Sequence record: PZ386955.1
From: a phage
DNA length: 64,000 nt
Direction: 5' to 3' (one strand)
A model generated the notes under the pieces. The model saw only the letters and a program-made list of their open reading frames with translations. It ran no database searches and was not told the DNA's origin. The position numbers were made by a program, and so were the translations under genes. Shown here one piece after another: positions 36,771 through 60,172 of this stretch; the stretch's first letter is position 1, and each line of letters begins with the position of its first letter.

Positions 36771-36797
36771 AAGGAGCCATTAGGCTCCTTTTCTTTT
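36771..36797. terminator. Bidirectional terminator at the boundary between structural (+) and replication (-) modules
   Basis: GGAGCC-ATTA-GGCTCC hairpin flanked by an A-run upstream and TTTTCTTTT downstream; convergent genes on both sides. Confidence 0.6.
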
Positions 36798-37938: not shown

Positions 37939-37958
37939 AAGGAGCCGTTAGGCTCCTT
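37939..37958 (-). terminator. Rho-independent terminator (minus strand) after the SSB-like gene
   Basis: AAGGAGCC-GTTA-GGCTCCTT hairpin; on the minus strand followed by TTTTCTTTG; near-identical to the 36771 hairpin. Confidence 0.55.
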
Positions 37959-37980: not shown

Positions 37981-38928
37981 TTAGAAACAGTGCAGGAAGT
38001 TTCGACCATACTGCAAACCAATAGGAGCAAATGGGATATCATCATCGAAATCTTGAACAACAGGTTCTGGTTCTTTCGGTGCTGGCTCTTTCTTCTCTAC
38101 TTTTTTAGTTTCTTTCTTAACTTCTTGTACTGGGGTAGACATTCCACGGATAGCAGCAGCTACTTTATCAGACAAAGCAAGAACTTCACGAGCAGCTTCA
38201 ATAATCTCTTCTGCCGTTACAGTTTTACCTGTATGATCACGACAAGCGTTAAGAATTGCGTGTCCAACTGAAGCACCAAGATCATAGTCAGTCACATCAA
38301 CGCCACGATCTTTAGCAATTTCAGCTTTCAGAGTAACAGTTGCAGATTGTACCACACCAGCCAAGTCGAAAGCATCACCTTTCACACCAGCACGTAGAAG
38401 CTCCAGAGCGCCGTTTACAGCGTGTCCTGTTTCAATCCCTACGGTATCACGTTTTTTGTAGTTAGGCTTGCTACCTTCGTTATTAGATGGCTTATTTCCA
38501 CCTTTTGAAGAAGATTGCGCTTGCTGAACACCTTCTGTTGAAAGAACAGTGATTTTACCTTTAGAGGAGTTGTAGTATGTTTTGCCATTCCATTCGGAAG
38601 GTTTAACATCCATAGTTAGTTCTACACCTTTTTCGATAGTAACCCACTTGTCACCATCTTTAACTTGCAGGTTTTCATGTTCTGGATGCAGTTTAACTTC
38701 ACCTAGGCTAACCCAAACACCTTTATCATCAGCACCAGCACCTTTCTCTTTAATAAGCAGAGATGCTTTGTGAGTTGATTCAATTTTCTTATCTGGCTGA
38801 CCTGCAACCTTAATATAAGAGACTTTCATTTCATCAAACTTATCCAGTTTGACATATTCAACGATACCTTCAGCCCAGAATGCTTCTTTTTTAGTACGAC
38901 GGTCGATTTCAGAATTAATTACTGGCAT
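37981..38928 (-). CDS. Putative ssDNA-binding protein with SSB-like acidic DFDDDIPF motif
   Basis: Gly/Ser/Asn/Lys-rich linker, Pro/Glu/Lys-rich segment, then QDFDDDIPF (same as the E. coli SSB C-terminal tip) followed by a further 15 residues. Confidence 0.45.
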   Translation of the reverse strand: MPVINSEIDRRTKKEAFWAEGIVEYVKLDKFDEMKVSYIKVAGQPDKKIESTHKASLLIKEKGAGADDKGVWVSLGEVKLHPEHENLQVKDGDKWVTIEKGVELTMDVKPSEWNGKTYYNSSKGKITVLSTEGVQQAQSSSKGGNKPSNNEGSKPNYKKRDTVGIETGHAVNGALELLRAGVKGDAFDLAGVVQSATVTLKAEIAKDRGVDVTDYDLGASVGHAILNACRDHTGKTVTAEEIIEAAREVLALSDKVAAAIRGMSTPVQEVKKETKKVEKKEPAPKEPEPVVQDFDDDIPFAPIGLQYGRNFLHCF

Positions 38929-39343: not shown

Positions 39344-39386
39344 TCAAGTCCTCATAATAACACATAATTATAATGTTTGTCAACAC

Positions 39387-39980
39387 TTAAATTTTAAATT
39401 CTTCATTGTTAAATGAATCCAGTGTACGTACTTCTGGCTCTTTGGGAATGAAAACGTCTTTTACAAAGCGGAACATAGGGAAACGTTCTGCCATTTTACG
39501 GACGTGTGCTTCTTTACCTGTGTATCGGTGATTAATAGTACAAATATTAGTTTTCAGTGCAAATTCAAAATCTGGATGATATACATAATTTTGACCATCC
39601 CAGTAACACAAGCAAATAGCTACATCAAAGTTCCATACGATTTCACTGCGTACACCTTCTTCCATGATCATAAAGTTAAACTTAAGATCTTTATAGTATG
39701 CTTCAAATACCCATTTCAAATGTGGTAGTTCGGCATAAGTGTGTTCTGTTTGCTTAGTAAGTTGTTTAACATTACGTGCACCAACACCCAACATCAAAAA
39801 CTTCTCTACTAGCACGAGTGTATTGTGGTTAGGCATACGCAAGTAAATGTCAATGTCTTGTGCAGGTTTCTCTAATCGCCAATCACGTACAGCGCCGCCA
39901 GCTACAATTGCAAACGGATCTACCAGTTGGCACATACGTAATACTTCTAAAGCGCGTACTTTTTGATCTTCAATATTCAT
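39387..39980 (-). CDS. Small nucleotidyltransferase (Pol beta superfamily; GGAVRD ... DIDI motif)
   Basis: IVAGGAVRDWRL...AQDIDIYL matches the hG[GS]-x-DhD signature (CCA-adding / minimal nucleotidyltransferase-like head); only 197 aa. Confidence 0.55.
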   Translation of the reverse strand: MNIEDQKVRALEVLRMCQLVDPFAIVAGGAVRDWRLEKPAQDIDIYLRMPNHNTLVLVEKFLMLGVGARNVKQLTKQTEHTYAELPHLKWVFEAYYKDLKFNFMIMEEGVRSEIVWNFDVAICLCYWDGQNYVYHPDFEFALKTNICTINHRYTGKEAHVRKMAERFPMFRFVKDVFIPKEPEVRTLDSFNNEEFKI

Positions 39981-40117
39981 ATTTTCTCCTATCTCTTATG
40001 GTCTTTGCGTTATTCTAGATGTTCAAACATCTAATTATGAAATGGTTTAAAAGTGTGGAACAACCTTGGCAATAACAGATTGTCCCACATAAAAACTCCT
40101 TTAAAATCAAATAGATA

Positions 40118-42697
40118 CTAGTGACAACTGGCCCATGAGTTACCAACATCGTAACCAGCAGTGAGAGGTACATTAAGATTGTAATACTCACCAGCTTTAT
40201 TAACAGCAATAGATGCTAATTCTCCAGCACGACTGTAGGCTGTAAACCAACCACCTTTCGGAGATTCATGTACGTTAGCCCAAATCTTGCCAGTACGTTT
40301 CTCTTCCTCTTCTTTCCAGGCATTAACTTTATCCAAACATTCTTTATCAATTTTCTTTTGTTCTTCTGGATCATCAACTTGAGTCCAACCTAAAGATTCT
40401 TTAGAGAACCATTTAAAATGCACCAGATCACGAGTTACTTCAAGCTGTGCTTCATCGTGGTATGCAATCATTTGTTGAACGAATGACTTATTTTTCCAGT
40501 CATCAACAAAAAAGTCAACAGCTAATCCTTCTTCTTCGATAAGATCGTCGTAGATAACCATTGCTCTTTTTGCACAAATAACACCACCACTCTGGAACAG
40601 AGAGTTAAGTATTGCGTGTGCAGATCGTGTAGGTACTTTTCTACCATCAATACCGAGAATGTATTTCTTACCTGTTTTAACCCAAAAATCATGCAGACGT
40701 TCTTTAAGAAGCGCAAGAGGTTTTGCAGCTTCCCAGAAAGCATCGTATACAAGCTGTCCTGTATACATATCACTACCAATAGTTTTTGCTACTTTTGCAG
40801 CTTGAGCACCATAAGTAATACCATACTTAACAGATTTAGCAGGGCTTCGTTCAAACTTACGACCAATAGTATCAGAAATACGTCGAGCCATCATTGTATG
40901 AACATCATTAGGTTTTTCCAACAATAGAGCATTACAATATTCGTGTGGTTCCTGCTCGTACCGCCAACAGTAGTGTGATTCTATTTTTGCCTCAAGAGAA
41001 TCAAAGTCATAACCAATTTGGAAGTATTTTGGAACTTCTACACCAAATAAGTTACGCATTTCATACCCGTACAAAGATGTTACACGTGGGATGTTTGCTA
41101 CTAACCTATGTTTCATACGAGACGTAGCTGCATCACACGTTGCAGCAGGAGTTGGTATACGACCATCAGCCCTTACTGCCGCCAGATACCCTTTATCATA
41201 ATCCTCTTCATCTTCTTCCCAATCAGCACCACCACCTAGAATAGAGTTTCTACGATGTTTATACGTAAGATACTGCACAATCTGCGTAGCATAAGGAAAC
41301 TTTTCACCTAGTGCTTCCAAGTTAGGACAAATATCCTTCTCTTGCCCTTTTGTAAAGGAAGGGTTAGTAAGCACTTTAACACCACGACCTTTAGCTTTAG
41401 CAATACGATCTCTTAGTTTCCATTCCAAAGTTTCTGGTGTGCACTCCAGATGATCACATCTATCCTGGCAGAAGTTAGATGCTAATGTTTGATCAACATA
41501 GTCACGAATAGCTTTCTCCATTTGTGCTTCATCTTTCTTAATCTTAGTGCCAGATTTAAGAGTGATATCTTTATCTTTATATTCAGATGGACTCCAACCT
41601 AAACCAACTAACCAATTTTTAATATGTGTAGTGTCATCTAAAGTAGCAGGTACTGTAGGATCACAAATAGGTTCTTCTGCTGGAATAGGTAGTTTAAACT
41701 CTTTACCTAATGCAAATAACCACCAACCATCTTCTTTTTGTACAAGTTCACCAGAATGTTTCTCTGCAAACTTTATCATGTTACTTGAAGGTTCACCATT
41801 CTTTTTAAACTGTAGTTTAGGTGGAATGAATGATTTCAAATAACCTTTAGTAGCAGGTTTAGGAGGTAGCACAGGTTCTGCCTCTAAACGACATGCTTCC
41901 ATTCGAGCATCCAGATCACGAATATTATCTTCTGCTTGTTTCATATTGAAAGCAAAGCCACGGTGCTCTTGACGTGTAATAATATCAGCTACACGTTGTT
42001 CTAAGTTAAATGGTTCAGACCACTTATTATAATCACCCCACTCTTCCATCAAATAACGGAACACTGCGGTGTTAGCTTTGTTATCGTAAATACAGTAATA
42101 CAGCATATCTGCTGCAAATGTTTTAAATCTTTCAGTTTCAGGAATGTTTTTTCTAAAATCAATTTTAACATCCCCTCCAGCTTTCTTAGATAACTCTGCC
42201 AGACTATGACCACCGAAGCGATCAGGGTTTAGTGTCTTACTTAAGATCATAGTATCACAAATTTCAATGTTACTATTACCCCAAGTATTGTACTTAATAC
42301 TGTAGTTGAGTTTAAAAAATAATTTAATTGCCAGTAAGTCGAAGTTAATGATGTTGTGTCCAACTACTTTGGTAATTTTATAGTTTGAATTACCTTTAAA
42401 TTTACCTGTTCCATTTACAAAATCAGGAAAATCTTTAAGAGGGAAATGGGTATATTCTAAATGCTCATATTCCTCCAGTCGGTATTCATACTTTCCGTCA
42501 GTCTCAATATACGGACGACCATCGAAAAGATATTTATCACCATCATGGAAAGCAATAATCTCTCCAGTATCATGACTTTCGCACACAATACAGTGCATTG
42601 CAAAACTATCTTTTAAACGATATGGACTTGCCAAGTAATCTACACTTTCGTCATTAAGCAAGTTGTTACTTTCAATGTCGAAAGTAAAAGCTCCCAT
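40118..42697 (-). CDS. DNA polymerase, family A, with 3'-5' exonuclease domain
   Basis: Exo I FTFDIESNN; motif A-like DFDSLEAKI; motif B-like RSPAKSVKYGITYGAQ; motif C IAYHDEAQ; 859 aa. Confidence 0.8.
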   Translation of the reverse strand: MGAFTFDIESNNLLNDESVDYLASPYRLKDSFAMHCIVCESHDTGEIIAFHDGDKYLFDGRPYIETDGKYEYRLEEYEHLEYTHFPLKDFPDFVNGTGKFKGNSNYKITKVVGHNIINFDLLAIKLFFKLNYSIKYNTWGNSNIEICDTMILSKTLNPDRFGGHSLAELSKKAGGDVKIDFRKNIPETERFKTFAADMLYYCIYDNKANTAVFRYLMEEWGDYNKWSEPFNLEQRVADIITRQEHRGFAFNMKQAEDNIRDLDARMEACRLEAEPVLPPKPATKGYLKSFIPPKLQFKKNGEPSSNMIKFAEKHSGELVQKEDGWWLFALGKEFKLPIPAEEPICDPTVPATLDDTTHIKNWLVGLGWSPSEYKDKDITLKSGTKIKKDEAQMEKAIRDYVDQTLASNFCQDRCDHLECTPETLEWKLRDRIAKAKGRGVKVLTNPSFTKGQEKDICPNLEALGEKFPYATQIVQYLTYKHRRNSILGGGADWEEDEEDYDKGYLAAVRADGRIPTPAATCDAATSRMKHRLVANIPRVTSLYGYEMRNLFGVEVPKYFQIGYDFDSLEAKIESHYCWRYEQEPHEYCNALLLEKPNDVHTMMARRISDTIGRKFERSPAKSVKYGITYGAQAAKVAKTIGSDMYTGQLVYDAFWEAAKPLALLKERLHDFWVKTGKKYILGIDGRKVPTRSAHAILNSLFQSGGVICAKRAMVIYDDLIEEEGLAVDFFVDDWKNKSFVQQMIAYHDEAQLEVTRDLVHFKWFSKESLGWTQVDDPEEQKKIDKECLDKVNAWKEEEEKRTGKIWANVHESPKGGWFTAYSRAGELASIAVNKAGEYYNLNVPLTAGYDVGNSWASCH

Positions 42698-43193: not shown

Positions 43194-44966
43194 TTAATAA
43201 GAACCATCAGGAATATTCTCTGGGTTACTTGTGTATTGATCGTAATCGTGAAGTGTAGCTGTTTTAATCTCATAGAAGAAACTACCTGCTGCACCAGTCT
43301 CTGAGAACTCACGGTTCTTTAGAATGTAGCAATATGTGCGGTTACGTTCCATAGGATCTTCAGCTTGTTTATCACGCTCCAGCGCAATTGTGATACCAGC
43401 ACCTTTAGCAAGGAAGCTACTACCCATTGCATCATCTTCTACAATATGTTCATTACTATTGTTAGAAGACTTTTTAACGTGTGAAATTACAACAATGGTA
43501 ATTGCGTACTCTTTCATAATGCGTTTGAGCCACGTCGCAAGTTCCTCTTGTTGTGACACGTCCATACCAGAAAGCAAATCAGAATAAGGGTCGATAACAA
43601 GAATGGTTACTCCGAAATAAATAATCATTTCCAGAACCTTCTCTTTAATCACATCTACGTTAGCTCCACGATCATCACAAACATAGAAACGTGGTGTTCC
43701 ATCTTCCCGTTCGTAAAAATCACGAATCTTTTCTTCATTATCTTTTAAAATCTTTTCCTTCTCTTCTTTCGTTTTACGGTGAAGAGGGATATGCAAGAAT
43801 GAAGACAGTAAGTTACGAGAATACTTCTTATACGTTGCCTCCAAAGATAAAATACCAAGAGTATGTTCTGGGTGTGCAAGAATAATGTGCTTCGTAATCT
43901 CGTTAACCAACAGTGTTTTACCGATACTTGTTTTTGCAAGTATAACAGTAATTTCTTCTTCTACCAAGCCTCCACCTAACATATTAGAAGCAACACGCAT
44001 GAATGGAGGAAGGGTGATCATTTTAGCTTCCAGGCATTCCAAGGCTGCTTCATACAGTACGTTAGAAGCATAAACACCAGCAGGTGTGTACAGTTTAGCT
44101 TTGAAAAAGCGATCAAGAAAGTGATCAATTTTTCCTTCTACTAGTGCCTGGTTAGGATCTTTAACATCTGTTAGTTCCATCACGTAAACTTTATTACGTG
44201 GTAAGATTTTAACACATTTCTCAACTGCTGCACGTCCAGCTTCATCATTATCCATACATAGAACAATCTTTTTAAATTGATCTAAGAATTTATAACGATG
44301 TTGAAGCTGCTTATGCAGAGATGTTTCGCCACAAGTGCCAGATACTACAGCAGGAACAGGATATTTACCACCCTTGTTATAATCTTTTAGCATCTGTGTT
44401 GCAGCCAGCATATCGTGTTCACCACCAACGATTAGAATAGTACCGCTGTGGTTACGATATTTAAACTCCCCAAAAAGATCACAATCCTTTCCTGTTTCAC
44501 CGATAGGATGTGAGAAATCTTTTGGATCGATACGTTGTTTATACCCAGCAATATTGTAATCTTTAGTTGTAGGGTATAGTGTTGAAATTACTTCGCCAGT
44601 AGCTTCATCGTACATATAACGTACACCGAAAGGCTTAGAGATATCTTCACGAATACCGCGATAACCTTTTGGATTAGTTCCAGTGCTGGCTTTCAGTTTA
44701 TCATGTACTTCTGGATTAAACTCACTACCCAAGATATCCTCCTCTTCAATTTCTTCGCCGTGTGCATTTAACCATTTTTGATCAGGGATAGTAAAGCCAC
44801 AAGAAAAACAATGTGCGCCTCGATGGTCTTCATCGGCATCTAAGCCATATACCATCAAATTGTTTTGTGATCGATCACGCCCTCCTTTCATACAACGAGG
44901 ACACCCAGTATGTCCTTCTTGACTTAGATCAATATTATACCCATATTTATTTACAACATAAGACAC
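43194..44966 (-). CDS. DNA primase-helicase (T7 gp4-like: zinc-ribbon primase + DnaB-like helicase)
   Basis: N-terminal zinc ribbon C.RC...C.SC; DnaB-like C-terminal half with Walker A AKTSIGKT and Walker B-like VLVIDPYSDL. Confidence 0.75.
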   Translation of the reverse strand: MSYVVNKYGYNIDLSQEGHTGCPRCMKGGRDRSQNNLMVYGLDADEDHRGAHCFSCGFTIPDQKWLNAHGEEIEEEDILGSEFNPEVHDKLKASTGTNPKGYRGIREDISKPFGVRYMYDEATGEVISTLYPTTKDYNIAGYKQRIDPKDFSHPIGETGKDCDLFGEFKYRNHSGTILIVGGEHDMLAATQMLKDYNKGGKYPVPAVVSGTCGETSLHKQLQHRYKFLDQFKKIVLCMDNDEAGRAAVEKCVKILPRNKVYVMELTDVKDPNQALVEGKIDHFLDRFFKAKLYTPAGVYASNVLYEAALECLEAKMITLPPFMRVASNMLGGGLVEEEITVILAKTSIGKTLLVNEITKHIILAHPEHTLGILSLEATYKKYSRNLLSSFLHIPLHRKTKEEKEKILKDNEEKIRDFYEREDGTPRFYVCDDRGANVDVIKEKVLEMIIYFGVTILVIDPYSDLLSGMDVSQQEELATWLKRIMKEYAITIVVISHVKKSSNNSNEHIVEDDAMGSSFLAKGAGITIALERDKQAEDPMERNRTYCYILKNREFSETGAAGSFFYEIKTATLHDYDQYTSNPENIPDGSY

Positions 44967-44978
44967 ATGATTCTCCTA

Positions 44979-45248
44979 CTAAAATGATTCGTTTGTCTCC
45001 ATAATATATTGCATTTCCAAATCTTCCATATGTTTCTTAAATTGGTAAACAATTTCCGATGGGGAAATATCTATATCAAAAAGTTCTTTTGTACCAGAAT
45101 AAAATCTAATACCATCAACAATAAGACCACCATAATAATCCCAATCACTTTCTCGTGAGAAAGGGTTAGGTTCTTCATAATAGTAATCTACTTCAACAAT
45201 AATAGGTTCTTTATTATCTTGTTTATACTCAAAATCAAAAGTGTTCAT
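44979..45248 (-). CDS. Hypothetical protein
   Basis: 89-aa acidic ORF coupled to neighbours. Confidence 0.35.
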   Translation of the reverse strand: MNTFDFEYKQDNKEPIIVEVDYYYEEPNPFSRESDWDYYGGLIVDGIRFYSGTKELFDIDISPSEIVYQFKKHMEDLEMQYIMETNESF

Positions 45249-46192
45249 TATAAATCCTCGATAAGCAGTCTGCGGGTTTCATTTAAATCATCAATATTGT
45301 AGTTATCTCTTACATACTTAGCAAGAGCCAATCCTTTCTCAATACAAACATCAGGAGATTCGATTAAGTATTCTACAATATCTTTCCACTCTTTAACTGA
45401 ATCAGCAAAGAAGATTAGATCTTTAAACTCTTCAGTATAATAGTTCTCTCGTGGTGAACAAACGAGTGGCAAACCTTTAGCACCAGCTTCAAGAATTTTT
45501 AAATTACTTTTGGCATTATTAAAATGATTATTTACTAATGGAGCTATGGAGATTTGATGACCATCGTATGCTTCCATATAACACTCATAAGGACGAATAC
45601 CCTCATAAACACAATCTGGTTGAATATCTTCTTTAATTTGCAACCATTGAGCACTACTTAACTCTTCGTGATCTCTACGAAATCCACATAAAGTTAAATC
45701 TTTACCAAAACTAGGAAGAATAGCTAAATCATGTTTATGTGTTTCACTTCCCGCCCAAACCAGTGGACTTTTAGAATAACGATCTTTAGTAAGAACAAAC
45801 TGTCCTTCATCAAAAGGTAGTCCGTTAGGCACAATATGTACATTATCATTGTATTGGCTTAATTCAACCTTTAATGCTGGAGTTGTTGTAGTTACAAGAT
45901 CGCTTCTTTCAAGGAACCATTTTAGATCATCTCGGATTTGATTTTCAAATAATCCTTCAAGCATATGTCCTTCAGGAATAATTAAAGAATCATCCAGATC
46001 CATTACCAATTTAAACCCAAGTTGTTTAAGAGCCAGGAAACCTGGCTTTCCACGGGTTGGTACTCCATTGAACACAAAAATATTATGCTTAGGATTAATG
46101 GTCAGTTTGCGTTTATATGGCAAAATGATTCTATGAAAATCACATACACTATACTTTTCATTTTCGCGTGTGTCAAGAATAATGTTAGGCAT
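45248..46192 (-). CDS. Glycosyltransferase (GT-B-like), paralogue 1
   Basis: C-terminal block DGHQISIAPLVNNHFNNAKSNLKILEAGAKGLPLVCS resembles the GT1/GT4 sugar-donor-binding region; paralogous to 46204 gene. Confidence 0.5.
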   Translation of the reverse strand: MPNIILDTRENEKYSVCDFHRIILPYKRKLTINPKHNIFVFNGVPTRGKPGFLALKQLGFKLVMDLDDSLIIPEGHMLEGLFENQIRDDLKWFLERSDLVTTTTPALKVELSQYNDNVHIVPNGLPFDEGQFVLTKDRYSKSPLVWAGSETHKHDLAILPSFGKDLTLCGFRRDHEELSSAQWLQIKEDIQPDCVYEGIRPYECYMEAYDGHQISIAPLVNNHFNNAKSNLKILEAGAKGLPLVCSPRENYYTEEFKDLIFFADSVKEWKDIVEYLIESPDVCIEKGLALAKYVRDNYNIDDLNETRRLLIEDL

Positions 46193-46203
46193 ATCGCTCC
46201 TTA

Positions 46204-47178
46204 TTAAAGACTTTCAATAACTTGACGACGCAGTTCATTGGCATCTGCAAGATTATAATTAAGACGAACGTGTTCTGCAAGCATCATACCACGATCTTCT
46301 GTGTATCTAGGGTTCCTCATTAGCTTGACAACTTCATAATGCCAAGATGCTTTAGAGTCTGCATAAATAACAGCCTTTGCATCTACTGGATTGAAGTACG
46401 GCAGCACAGGAGAACAGATAATAGGAAGACCCTTTGCACCTGCTTCCAAAATCTTCAAATTGCTTTTACAGTTGTTGAAGTCATTATCTACCAGAGGAGC
46501 AATTGCAATACTGTGACCGTCATACACAGACATATACTCACCTAGATTTTTAATAGCTGGTTTATACTGTGCATTTGGAATTTTACGTTTTATTTTAACC
46601 CACTCCGCAGTAGTTAGATACTGACTATTATTTCCAACAGGTGCAGAAGGATACACTTCGTACCCTGCAATTGTCAATAGTGTATCATCAAATGTATTAG
46701 CTACAAGAGATAAATCAGGTTCATGGCTTGCTCCTCCAGCCCAAACAATAGGTGTGTCAGAATAACGGTCTTTTGTTAAAGTAAATTGACCTTCATCGTA
46801 AGGCAGTGCGTTTCTAATAACGACAACATTACGATTTAAATGACGAATTTTGTAAGCTAGGTATTCTGTTGTTACAGTAACCACATCTGCTAACTTAATC
46901 ATCTCTACAATAGTCTTTGAGTGATTAGTAAATACGCCAGCCATATAATGTTCAGGATTAAGCGAATAAAAATCATCTAAATCAACAATAATCTTAACAC
47001 CTTGTGCCTTCAGGCGTTTAACTTCGTCTGATCCACGAGAATACACTCTATTAAAAACTAAAACGTCTTTCTTAGGTTTAAACGTATTTCCAGCAAATGG
47101 CATTACAATACGATGGTAATCACAACCACTGCCTAACTTATTATCACACTTAAGTACAGGAGTATTAGGATTTACCAT
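46204..47178 (-). CDS. Glycosyltransferase (GT-B-like), paralogue 2
   Basis: Block DGHSIAIAPLVDNDFNNCKSNLKILEAGAKGLPIICS nearly identical to paralogue 1; start taken at internal ATG 47178 after GAGGAGG (track start 47217 also possible). Confidence 0.5.
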   Translation of the reverse strand: MVNPNTPVLKCDNKLGSGCDYHRIVMPFAGNTFKPKKDVLVFNRVYSRGSDEVKRLKAQGVKIIVDLDDFYSLNPEHYMAGVFTNHSKTIVEMIKLADVVTVTTEYLAYKIRHLNRNVVVIRNALPYDEGQFTLTKDRYSDTPIVWAGGASHEPDLSLVANTFDDTLLTIAGYEVYPSAPVGNNSQYLTTAEWVKIKRKIPNAQYKPAIKNLGEYMSVYDGHSIAIAPLVDNDFNNCKSNLKILEAGAKGLPIICSPVLPYFNPVDAKAVIYADSKASWHYEVVKLMRNPRYTEDRGMMLAEHVRLNYNLADANELRRQVIESL

Positions 47179-47851
47179 ATTTTTGAGCCTCCTCATAAGA
47201 GATAAAAGTTTTACCATTGCGAAGATCCTCCAGTGATTGTTTATATTGTTCCCAGTTTACACCAATCCCCTGTTCTTTCTCTTCTTTTGACAGATTCGCA
47301 AAAGGTAAAGGATTGTCTCCAAACACATCGTCAGGATGGATAAACGCCATAATTCGAATAGGACATGGTACGCCGTGAATACCTCGGTTCAAACCTGCCA
47401 GTGGAACGCGCTGAATCCACTCTGCATCTTCATATCCATAACCGTGGGTGTATGAGCGGAAATAGCCAGCTTTCTCAATAACTGCACGGGAATACATACC
47501 AAACTGGCACATGCCTAGCTCCCAAATAACCACTTCTCCTTCAATACCTTTTACTTTATCTTTAAAGTATTCAGGCATACCAAAGAAATCCCAACCATTT
47601 TCCTTCGCCTGTTTTACAAAATATGTTTCCCAACCTGGAACAACAGGATAACAATCATCATCAAAAATAAACCAGTAGTCATACCCTTCATCATAAAACT
47701 TTTTCATCAGTTCATTACGGGCATATGCAACACCTTTTCGTTCACGATCATACTGTACAACAAAAGTAGCATTAGGATCAGTTACAAGATAATCTTTAAG
47801 AGGACGCTTACCTACAGTAATAACACCAACACCAATTTTTGTATTTTCCAA
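47165..47851 (-). CDS. Glycosyltransferase, GT-A-like (DxD motif)
   Basis: Rossmann-like N-terminus IGVGVITVGKRP and acidic FIFDDDCYP motif typical of family 2-like GT-A enzymes. Confidence 0.5.
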   Translation of the reverse strand: MENTKIGVGVITVGKRPLKDYLVTDPNATFVVQYDRERKGVAYARNELMKKFYDEGYDYWFIFDDDCYPVVPGWETYFVKQAKENGWDFFGMPEYFKDKVKGIEGEVVIWELGMCQFGMYSRAVIEKAGYFRSYTHGYGYEDAEWIQRVPLAGLNRGIHGVPCPIRIMAFIHPDDVFGDNPLPFANLSKEEKEQGIGVNWEQYKQSLEDLRNGKTFISYEEAQKYGKS

Positions 47852-60150: not shown

Positions 60151-60172
60151 AAAGGAGGCTTTCGCCTCCTTT
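60151..60172 (-). terminator. Rho-independent terminator after the AAA ATPase gene
   Basis: AAAGGAGGC-loop-GCCTCCTTT hairpin; on the minus strand followed by ATTTAT. Confidence 0.5.

Follow-up and report, generated by a model that had tools for sequence, protein, structure and literature searches.

What a phage does with a nucleotidyltransferase (NTase) that has the catalytic core of CCA-adding enzymes at less than their full size, and why its gene should follow that of the DNA polymerase, are the questions raised by a locus in phage sequence record PZ386955.1, of which a stretch of 64,000 nt (here called the window) was analysed. The gene lies at 39387–39980 on the minus strand and encodes a protein of 197 aa. 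The reading that we tentatively favour, and to which we give close to an even chance, is that the product is a stand-alone, 'head-only' NTase, catalytically competent, which transfers nucleoside monophosphates (NMPs) to RNA 3′ ends without a template. The observations behind it are the fold, an invariant GG…DxD core, a conserved acidic residue (E93), purifying selection and repeated co-location with the genes of T7-type replisomes.

To our knowledge, every characterized enzyme with a head of the kind found in CCA-adding enzymes, as well as in poly(A) polymerase (PAP), adds ribonucleotides to RNA 3′ ends in a template-free manner, and it is for this reason that we prefer RNA 3′-end chemistry. 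In the proposed mechanism, two Mg2+ ions would be held at the active site by D42 and D44, together with E93, and an NMP would be moved from a nucleoside triphosphate to the 3′-OH of an RNA end with no template. Candidate acceptors are tRNA-like ACCA ends, short primers and transcripts, and one or a few nucleotides would be added. With neither the motifs that sense the ribose and template the base nor the body and tail that bind tRNA, the enzyme would have to choose nucleotide and substrate in another way than CCA enzymes do, possibly with a partner. Its gene would probably be expressed at the end of the DNA polymerase unit. Of four more specific readings of the substrate, namely tRNA repair, tailing of host RNA, a role in the replisome and a target other than nucleic acid, none is favoured by the data.

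Identity, fold and active site

The open reading frame (ORF) begins with ATG behind an AGGAG ribosome-binding site (39986–39990, minus strand), which is annotated as such in Escherichia phage phi92 and is invariant in an alignment of five phages. The initial annotation of the locus had correctly described the ORF, its length and the motifs GGAVRD (G28–D33) and DIDIY (D42–Y46), as well as the position of the gene downstream of a DNA polymerase, from which it is separated by 137 nt. The protein is 100 % identical to phi92 gp158 and to the orthologue in 23 other records, with at least 95 % identity in 56 records, and the window is therefore assigned to a phi92-like myovirus (Justusliebigvirus, Stephanstirmvirinae). 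Its gene order is that of phi92: primase-helicase, gp160, DNA polymerase, NTase, gp157, gp156 and methyltransferase. In RefSeq, phi92 gp158 is named 'nucleotidyltransferase', and some relatives carry the name 'putative tRNA nucleotidyl transferase/poly(A) polymerase'. The protein matches PHROG 1614 (E = 2e-34, residues 7–193), and PF26128 is recorded in the protein database for the 99 %-identical representative of its cluster; a literature search for PF26128 returned nothing. The profile match over the full length and the conserved core DP..AGGAxRDW...DxDxY place the protein in the phi92 gp158-type family. Both gene and annotation are already present in RefSeq, PHROGs and Pfam, and the gene is a known and ordinary one.

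The core of the Pol-beta superfamily is present, with an alpha-beta-alpha-beta fold, the hG[GS] turn before helix 2 and the [DE]h[DE]h metal motif as D42-I-D44-I on strand 43–48. The closest folds are CCA- and A-adding enzymes, the top structural match being Escherichia coli PAP I. Across 75 family members P22, G28, G29, W34, D42 and D44 are invariant, and D21, A27, A30, R32 (72 of 75), A40, G67, Y82, W126 and K162 are kept in at least 90 %; position 31 is proline in 74 of the 75 and valine in the window protein. Loss of the catalytic aspartates on alignment, which the initial annotation had named as grounds for abandoning the assignment, is not seen in any of the 75 members. An acidic residue occupies position 93 in 64 of the 75, and 74 have Q or N at position 102. 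In the structural model E93, in the context F-E-A, is the cross-strand neighbour of Q/N102 in a hairpin formed by residues 88–96 and 99–106, and the two-residue turn would set E93 and N102 opposite each other on the same face of the sheet. From the strand order of class-II enzymes and the alignment to Gp22 of Klebsiella phage fHe-Kpn01, we propose that position 102 may be the canonical third-carboxylate slot, with the acid supplied by E93 from the neighbouring strand; the proposal also draws in part on Glu79 of the Bacillus stearothermophilus enzyme. Conserved columns and gap columns prevailed in a mean-field coevolution analysis of 309 sequences, which did not discriminate between the E93 strand and the Q/N102 strand in the pairing with strand 2.

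The NTase genes of the window, phi92 and phage VEcB show 10, 9 and 5 nt differences, all of them synonymous, as against 82–99 % identity in the adjoining spacer, and by this comparison purifying selection on the NTase is strong. Judged from its conserved residues the enzyme looks active, and we consider it very probable that it is an active NTase of Pol-beta fold, derived from the head of a class-II CCA-adding enzyme or PAP.

Candidate substrates and the replication module

The likeness to full-length CCA-adding enzymes is confined to motif A (GGxVRD, then DxD), over which the protein aligns to E. coli Cca and PcnB and to CCA enzymes in the PDB. In PDB sequence searches made with the single protein and with a profile of 75 sequences, motif A alone was aligned to CCA enzymes (E 0.2–0.5), and in hhalign the match of the family profile to E. 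coli Cca and PcnB ends after motif A, with probabilities of 7 % and 25 %. Motif B (RRD, sensing of the ribose 2′-OH) and motif D (EDxxR, the base-templating pocket) have no conserved equivalents in the 75-member table; the alignment of E. coli Cca and PcnB shows both RRD and EDP..R. Nor were the helical body and tail domains found, the protein ending at residue 197 and the model consisting of the head and two short helices; the remark in the initial annotation that the protein is far shorter than a full CCA enzyme is borne out (197 against 370–470 aa). A sister phage, VEcB (Justusliebigvirus, OZ035773.1), has 16 tRNA genes (44024–47221 of locus L019), every one of which encodes its 3′-CCA, so that synthesis of CCA de novo is not needed; there are no tRNA genes in the window itself. 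Given the CCA-encoding tRNA genes of this sister phage, the missing RRD and EDxxR motifs, body and tail, and a match to Pfam PolyA_pol below threshold, the NTase is not, as far as its sequence tells, a bona fide CCA-adding enzyme. The role at tRNA 3′ ends put forward in the initial annotation, if understood as CCA synthesis, draws no support from the encoded CCA or from the absence of the parts that select nucleotides and bind tRNA.

A true repair function is another reading: the enzyme would give tRNAs of host and phage back a lost A, CA or CCA and so counter host nucleases that trim or cut their tails. The nearest folds are indeed those of CCA- and A-adding enzymes, the lineage invests in tRNAs to the extent of the 16 genes of VEcB, Cas12a3 (PMC12851939) is an example of an immune nuclease that cleaves the CCA tails of tRNA, jumbo phages have full-length CCA enzymes with a presumed repair role (PMC7824862), and the annotation of some relatives as tRNA nucleotidyl transferases points the same way. 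Yet the family consensus lacks the motifs and domains just listed, the NCBIfam CCA equivalog models score only 14–15 bits against cut-offs of 280–290, the phage tRNA genes encode CCA and the host has its own Cca. Homologues also occur in phages without annotated tRNA genes, such as the 43-kb fHe-Kpn01, and the copy in ICP1 is only a truncated one of 139 aa. We regard repair of damaged tRNA tails, which nothing supports specifically, as unlikely.

In Klebsiella phage fHe-Kpn01 the DNA polymerase gene (gp21) is followed, with an overlap of 4 nt, by gp22, a 'putative nucleotidyltransferase' of 182 aa that is a remote homologue of the window protein (hhalign probability 74 %, E = 2.9e-5, 100 columns). 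Gp22 is toxic on expression in E. coli (PMC7291057), and this, together with its same position behind the polymerase, speaks for a different use, the shutting off of host functions. Extra nucleotides on tRNA acceptor ends, in the manner of MenT/AbiEii, or oligo(A) tails, in the manner of PcnB, would then block translation or mark host RNA for decay. The top structural match, PAP I, is itself reported to be toxic on over-expression. However, toxicity on over-expression is common, the Gp22 result does not come from the phi92 gp158-type family, and the structures of MenT-type toxins match far less well than CCA/PAP heads do. Polymerases that coat RNA are typically basic, whereas the NTase is neutral; as a proxy for RNA binding its charge is uninformative or tells mildly against such binding. 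Shut-off would also sit more easily with an antitoxin-like partner or a PADLOC match, and neither was found. The toxin/antitoxin-like enzyme suggested in the initial annotation finds no support on the same two counts, lacking a PADLOC match and a conserved partner gene, and the protein cannot on these grounds be placed among the defence NTase toxins and antitoxins (MenT/AbiEii, MNT-HEPN and CD-NTases). Tailing for host shut-off is in our judgement as unlikely as repair.

The same comparisons bear on a target other than nucleic acid, either a protein nucleotidylated in the manner of MNT or GlnE, or a small molecule or nucleotide, by which the phage would neutralize a host defence or would make or consume a signalling nucleotide. 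A small, neutral protein without nucleic-acid-binding domains, from a family restricted to phages as many anti-defence genes are, would suit such a function. In structure, however, every enzyme class of this kind clearly matches less well than CCA/PAP heads, PADLOC returned neither a defence nor an anti-defence family, and no conserved partner or target gene lies nearby. We consider a target of this kind very improbable.

The gene neighbourhood points in another direction, to DNA replication. The polymerase of the window (40118–42697, minus strand; Pfam DNA_pol_A, PHROG 17) is a family-A, T7-type enzyme of 859 aa without an intein, and beyond it an ORF at 43194–44966 (minus strand) encodes a T7 gp4-type primase-helicase, which clusters with Toprim + DnaB_C proteins. 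For a survey of neighbours, ORFs were called and clustered in 88 loci, and the NTases were dereplicated at 80 % identity to 60 groups. In 23 of the 60 groups the NTase has a family-A DNA polymerase within 3 kb, and in 21 a Toprim + DnaB_C primase-helicase within the same distance; 36 groups have at least one of the two within 5 kb, and seven have a 5′–3′ exonuclease near the NTase. The only widely shared neighbours in the 60 groups are replication proteins and mobile HNH-AP2 endonucleases. The NTase stands upstream or downstream of the polymerase, depending on the group, and the polymerases are down to 22–27 % identical to that of the window. Random placement would put a gene within 5 kb of the polymerase in an estimated 10–20 % or so of cases in genomes of 40–150 kb; since 36 of 60 exceeds this estimate, we take the link with replication to be real, with the reservation that the groups are not phylogenetically independent. 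Reports on other phages agree with it, the NT adjoining the DNAP in T7-like Pectobacterium phages (PMC7693777) and the NTase standing among the replication genes in Gordonclarkvirinae (PMC11990801).

Such co-location with a family-A polymerase and a gp4-like primase-helicase, across very divergent phages and in varying gene orders, speaks for a direct role in T7-type replisomes. The enzyme would there act on primer or DNA 3′ ends, so that ACCA-type or tRNA primers are made, extended or blocked, or alternatively it would add untemplated nucleotides to DNA ends. The ACCA end of tRNA reportedly equals a T7 primer sequence. Host tRNA can serve as a primer for the T7 lagging strand, according to the summary of Zhu et al. 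(2012) given in PMC11506809. But the genes may lie together only because they share middle-gene timing or are inherited as a block. In several Vibrio and ICP1-type phages the NTase stands with early genes of unknown function, and the region examined contains no polymerase. In structure, moreover, the NTase resembles RNA-acting CCA/PAP enzymes much more closely than DNA-acting Pol X enzymes. A direct replisome role is thus also on the unlikely side. A more specific proposal, which we hold to be improbable, is that the NTase is an accessory of T7-type replisomes that edits 3′-ACCA RNA ends, either tRNA tails or the tetraribonucleotides of the primase, and thereby controls lagging-strand priming; if this were true, the podovirus homologue's toxicity would be accounted for by incidental action on tRNA tails.

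Several observations tell against template-free transfer to RNA 3′ ends, the reading that we nevertheless prefer. Pfam PolyA_pol is matched with 19.1 bits against a cut-off of 23 and over residues 26–81 only, and just seven of the 75 family members match it at E < 0.01, none of them well. The strand order may put Q/N102, and not an acid, in the canonical third-carboxylate slot. The protein is not basic (isoelectric point 6.3; family median 7.0), and the absence of an RNA-binding body or tail is unusual for an enzyme that acts on polynucleotides. The link with the replication module fits a DNA-end or nucleotide substrate equally well, and literature searches on phage head-domain NTases returned no functional study of this family.

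As regards the wider neighbourhood, Stephanstirmvirinae conserve an order in which the DNA polymerase is followed by either small ORFs or a homing endonuclease, then by the NTase, and then by proteins of 130 aa and 300 aa in turn. The gp157-like and gp156-like genes downstream have no PDB or Pfam match and are conserved neighbours only within this subfamily. The gp156-like protein (37981–38928, minus strand; 315 aa, PHROG 4477) carries, 16 residues before its C terminus, DFDDDIPF, the motif that ends the E. coli single-strand DNA-binding protein (SSB); it also matches an SSB PHROG weakly and may be a phage SSB. The polymerase gene is 2580 nt in the window and 3315 nt in phi92 and PaulScherrer, both of which carry an intein; the PaulScherrer polymerase is annotated as an intein-containing precursor, and some relatives annotate a polymerase 'part I'. 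In phi92, four consecutive glycosyltransferase genes (gp163–166; 1–2998 of locus L001) stand just upstream of the replication module, and the equivalent region of the window lies upstream of its primase-helicase. No NTase was present in the region of KP34 that was examined.

The spacer between polymerase and NTase

The 137 nt between the two genes contain the perfect 18-bp palindrome that the initial annotation had reported and had put forward as a candidate operator. The palindrome exists but is located at 40016–40033, not at 40006–40023; it reads TAGATGTTcaAACATCTA, that is TAGATGTT-ca-AACATCTA, with arms of 8 + 8, and as RNA it would form only a weak hairpin of 7 bp (ΔG −6.3 kcal/mol). An operator at this site would be bound by a dimeric regulator of the phage or host, which would control transcription of the NTase. 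The perfect symmetry, the position 36 nt upstream of the NTase start codon, the overlap with a promoter-like match (TTCATA-18-TAGAAT) and the identity of the palindrome in four phages with a short spacer all speak for such a function. Other data speak against it. The promoter-like match is of 9/12, a level reached 32 times in 9 kb where 28.5 are expected, so that it stands at background. Perfect inverted repeats with 8-bp arms and a loop of at most 4 nt number 19 in the window as against 7.3 ± 3.2 in first-order Markov simulations, which means that about seven palindromes of such a size are expected per window by chance; most of the excess consists of GC-rich terminator hairpins, and the palindrome itself is AT-rich. 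One such repeat in a given spacer of 137 nt is uncommon (about 2 %), and so mildly unexpected and not remarkable. There is no second copy in the 64 kb even with three mismatches allowed, and the flanks are conserved as much as the palindrome.

Among the loci compared, the palindrome is perfect only in the window, phi92, inny and ALITA, all with a short spacer; in about half of the relatives the site is imperfect and lies inside the ORF of an HNH endonuclease, as in phage alia, where it reads GAAATGCTTGAGCATGTAG. The NTase is 99–100 % conserved in short-spacer and endonuclease-carrying phages alike, and since it is conserved with or without a perfect palindrome, the palindrome is not a required control element. 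We regard its service as an operator as highly improbable.

Nor is the region truly intergenic, as it had been called, for it contains an ORF of 19 codons (40031–40090, minus strand; MWDNLLLPRLFHTFKPFHN and a stop codon), with a strong AAGGAG site at 40096–40101 and an ATG right after the polymerase stop codon; its own stop codon, TAG, is formed by the first three bases of the palindrome on the minus strand. The spacers of the window, phi92, inny, ALITA and outra were aligned. The start of this mini-ORF opens, in alia, VEcB and some 20 further relatives, the gene for a 198-aa HNH-AP2 homing endonuclease, which fills the entire spacer and has its stop codon inside the NTase ribosome-binding site. 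The last 90 nt or so of the endonuclease gene are homologous to the spacer of the window, the 3′ part of the mini-ORF corresponding to the 3′ end of the gene, and phage outra has a derivative of 40 codons that arose by internal deletion. Five further relatives have another endonuclease variant in the spacer. The short spacer is found in 27 of the phi92-like records, an endonuclease gene in another 27 and the remnant in one. From the shared start signals, the 3′ homology and the intermediate in outra, the mini-ORF looks like a remnant of an HNH-AP2 homing endonuclease gene.

An imperfect inverted repeat reported alongside the palindrome is also present, but at 40054–40089 and not at 40043–40078. 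On the coding (minus) strand it folds as RNA into a hairpin of 13 bp, followed by CUUUUAAA, with ΔG −17.8 kcal/mol (z = −3.9), and sequesters the AUG of the mini-ORF. In phi92 the stem is kept through two pair-compatible changes, though four sequences are too few to show selection. The terminator scan did not call this hairpin, its loop being 10 nt and its U-run only 4, and Rfam gave no match in the spacer. The hairpin may be a weak terminator or a stabilizer after the polymerase gene. Palindrome and hairpin would thus lie in the decayed scar of a homing endonuclease gene and act at most as hairpins in the transcript, not as an operator.

The best promoter match in a scan of 9 kb lies on the other side of the NTase, at 39354–39383 on the minus strand, 4 nt past the NTase stop codon and ahead of the gp157-like gene. 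It is sigma-70-like (TTGACA, 18 nt, TG-extended TATTAT) and agrees with the consensus at 11/12 positions, a consensus match only. Its place directly after the stop codon suggests that the polymerase transcription unit ends with the NTase. Further downstream, near-identical GC-rich hairpins with T-runs, AAGGAGCCaTTAGGCTCCTT and AAGGAGCCgTTAGGCTCCTT, occur on opposite strands at 36771–36790 and 37939–37958; they look like a reused terminator flanking the block of the methyltransferase and gp154, and a similar one is found at 60152–60171.

Comparison with known systems

An exhaustive profile search gave 997 clusters (50 % identity) at E ≤ 1e-3, nearly all of them stand-alone proteins of 175–220 aa. 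A pattern scan of one genome from each of 185,579 prokaryotic species found four loci only, all in metagenome-assembled genomes, as against 95 loci in the same kind of scan of viral contigs; as both scans depend on a single peptide pattern, it is within the reach of that pattern that the family is virus-restricted. The BFVD holds many viral head-only proteins of 170–220 aa with the same shape, among them proteins from giant viruses and from T7-like phages of Pectobacterium, Dickeya, Providencia and Pseudomonas. In ICP1 the homologue, gp223 (5959–6378 of locus L005), is truncated to 139 aa, with the GG…DxD core kept and the C-terminal third gone, and in several ICP1 records the match spans two annotated ORFs, which may indicate a decaying or split gene. 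NTase genes are also carried by five 'Campylobacter phage' records (MG065639, MG065645, MG065656, MG065689 and MG065650; host Campylobacter jejuni, about 146–151 kb), whose NTase genes and spacers share 94–99 % identity with their counterparts in E. coli phi92-like phages or score the same as Phapecoctavirus; the host labels of these records look doubtful.

Finding the gene here adds little, as it is already catalogued. What is of interest is the family, large and virus-only, of half-size CCA/PAP-like proteins (about 1000 clusters at 50 % identity) that is linked to replication and occurs in myoviruses, podoviruses and many uncultured phages. Knowledge of its substrate would give content to the bare name 'nucleotidyltransferase' that recurs in phage annotation, and could reveal a link between RNA 3′-end chemistry and phage DNA replication, a new means of host shut-off, or tRNA repair. 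The BASEL collection includes phi92-like phages, which grow on E. coli K-12, and the question is thus directly testable.

Among known systems, the phi92 gp158 family (PHROG 1614/10174; PF26128) is the one to which the window protein belongs, with the same protein, the same position after the polymerase, the same length class, the GGAxRDW...DxD core and the conserved E93, Q/N102, W126 and K162, and with no difference of substance. Class-II tRNA NTases and PAP I (PF01743 head; 1miv, 3h37, 4wby and 3aql) are 370–470 aa long as against 197 here; the phage family is without a recognizable motif B, motif D, body or tail, has an invariant Trp after the RD, is virus-restricted and stays below the Pfam threshold, and in its active site the third-carboxylate slot is possibly Q/N, with the acidic residue on the neighbouring strand. 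The short NTases of T7-like podoviruses (fHe-Kpn01 Gp22 and the 'tRNA nucleotidyltransferases' of Pectobacterium and Dickeya phages) resemble it in being head-only proteins of about 170–190 aa whose genes adjoin the polymerase, and they are its structural neighbours in the BFVD and its remote homologues, yet they are only 15–20 % identical and belong to another PHROG/Pfam family; Gp22 has the equivalent Glu and, where the phi92 gp158-type family has Q/N, an extra Asp in an h-D-h motif (EIDVLF). The stand-alone CCA-head protein of Streptococcus pneumoniae (NP_344798.1; PDB 2la3) is cellular, not viral, and 9 % identical. Finally, MenT/AbiEii toxins are small enzymes of Pol-beta fold by which nucleotides are added to tRNA 3′ ends (PMC10435456, PMC11541572), and they offer a possible functional analogy.

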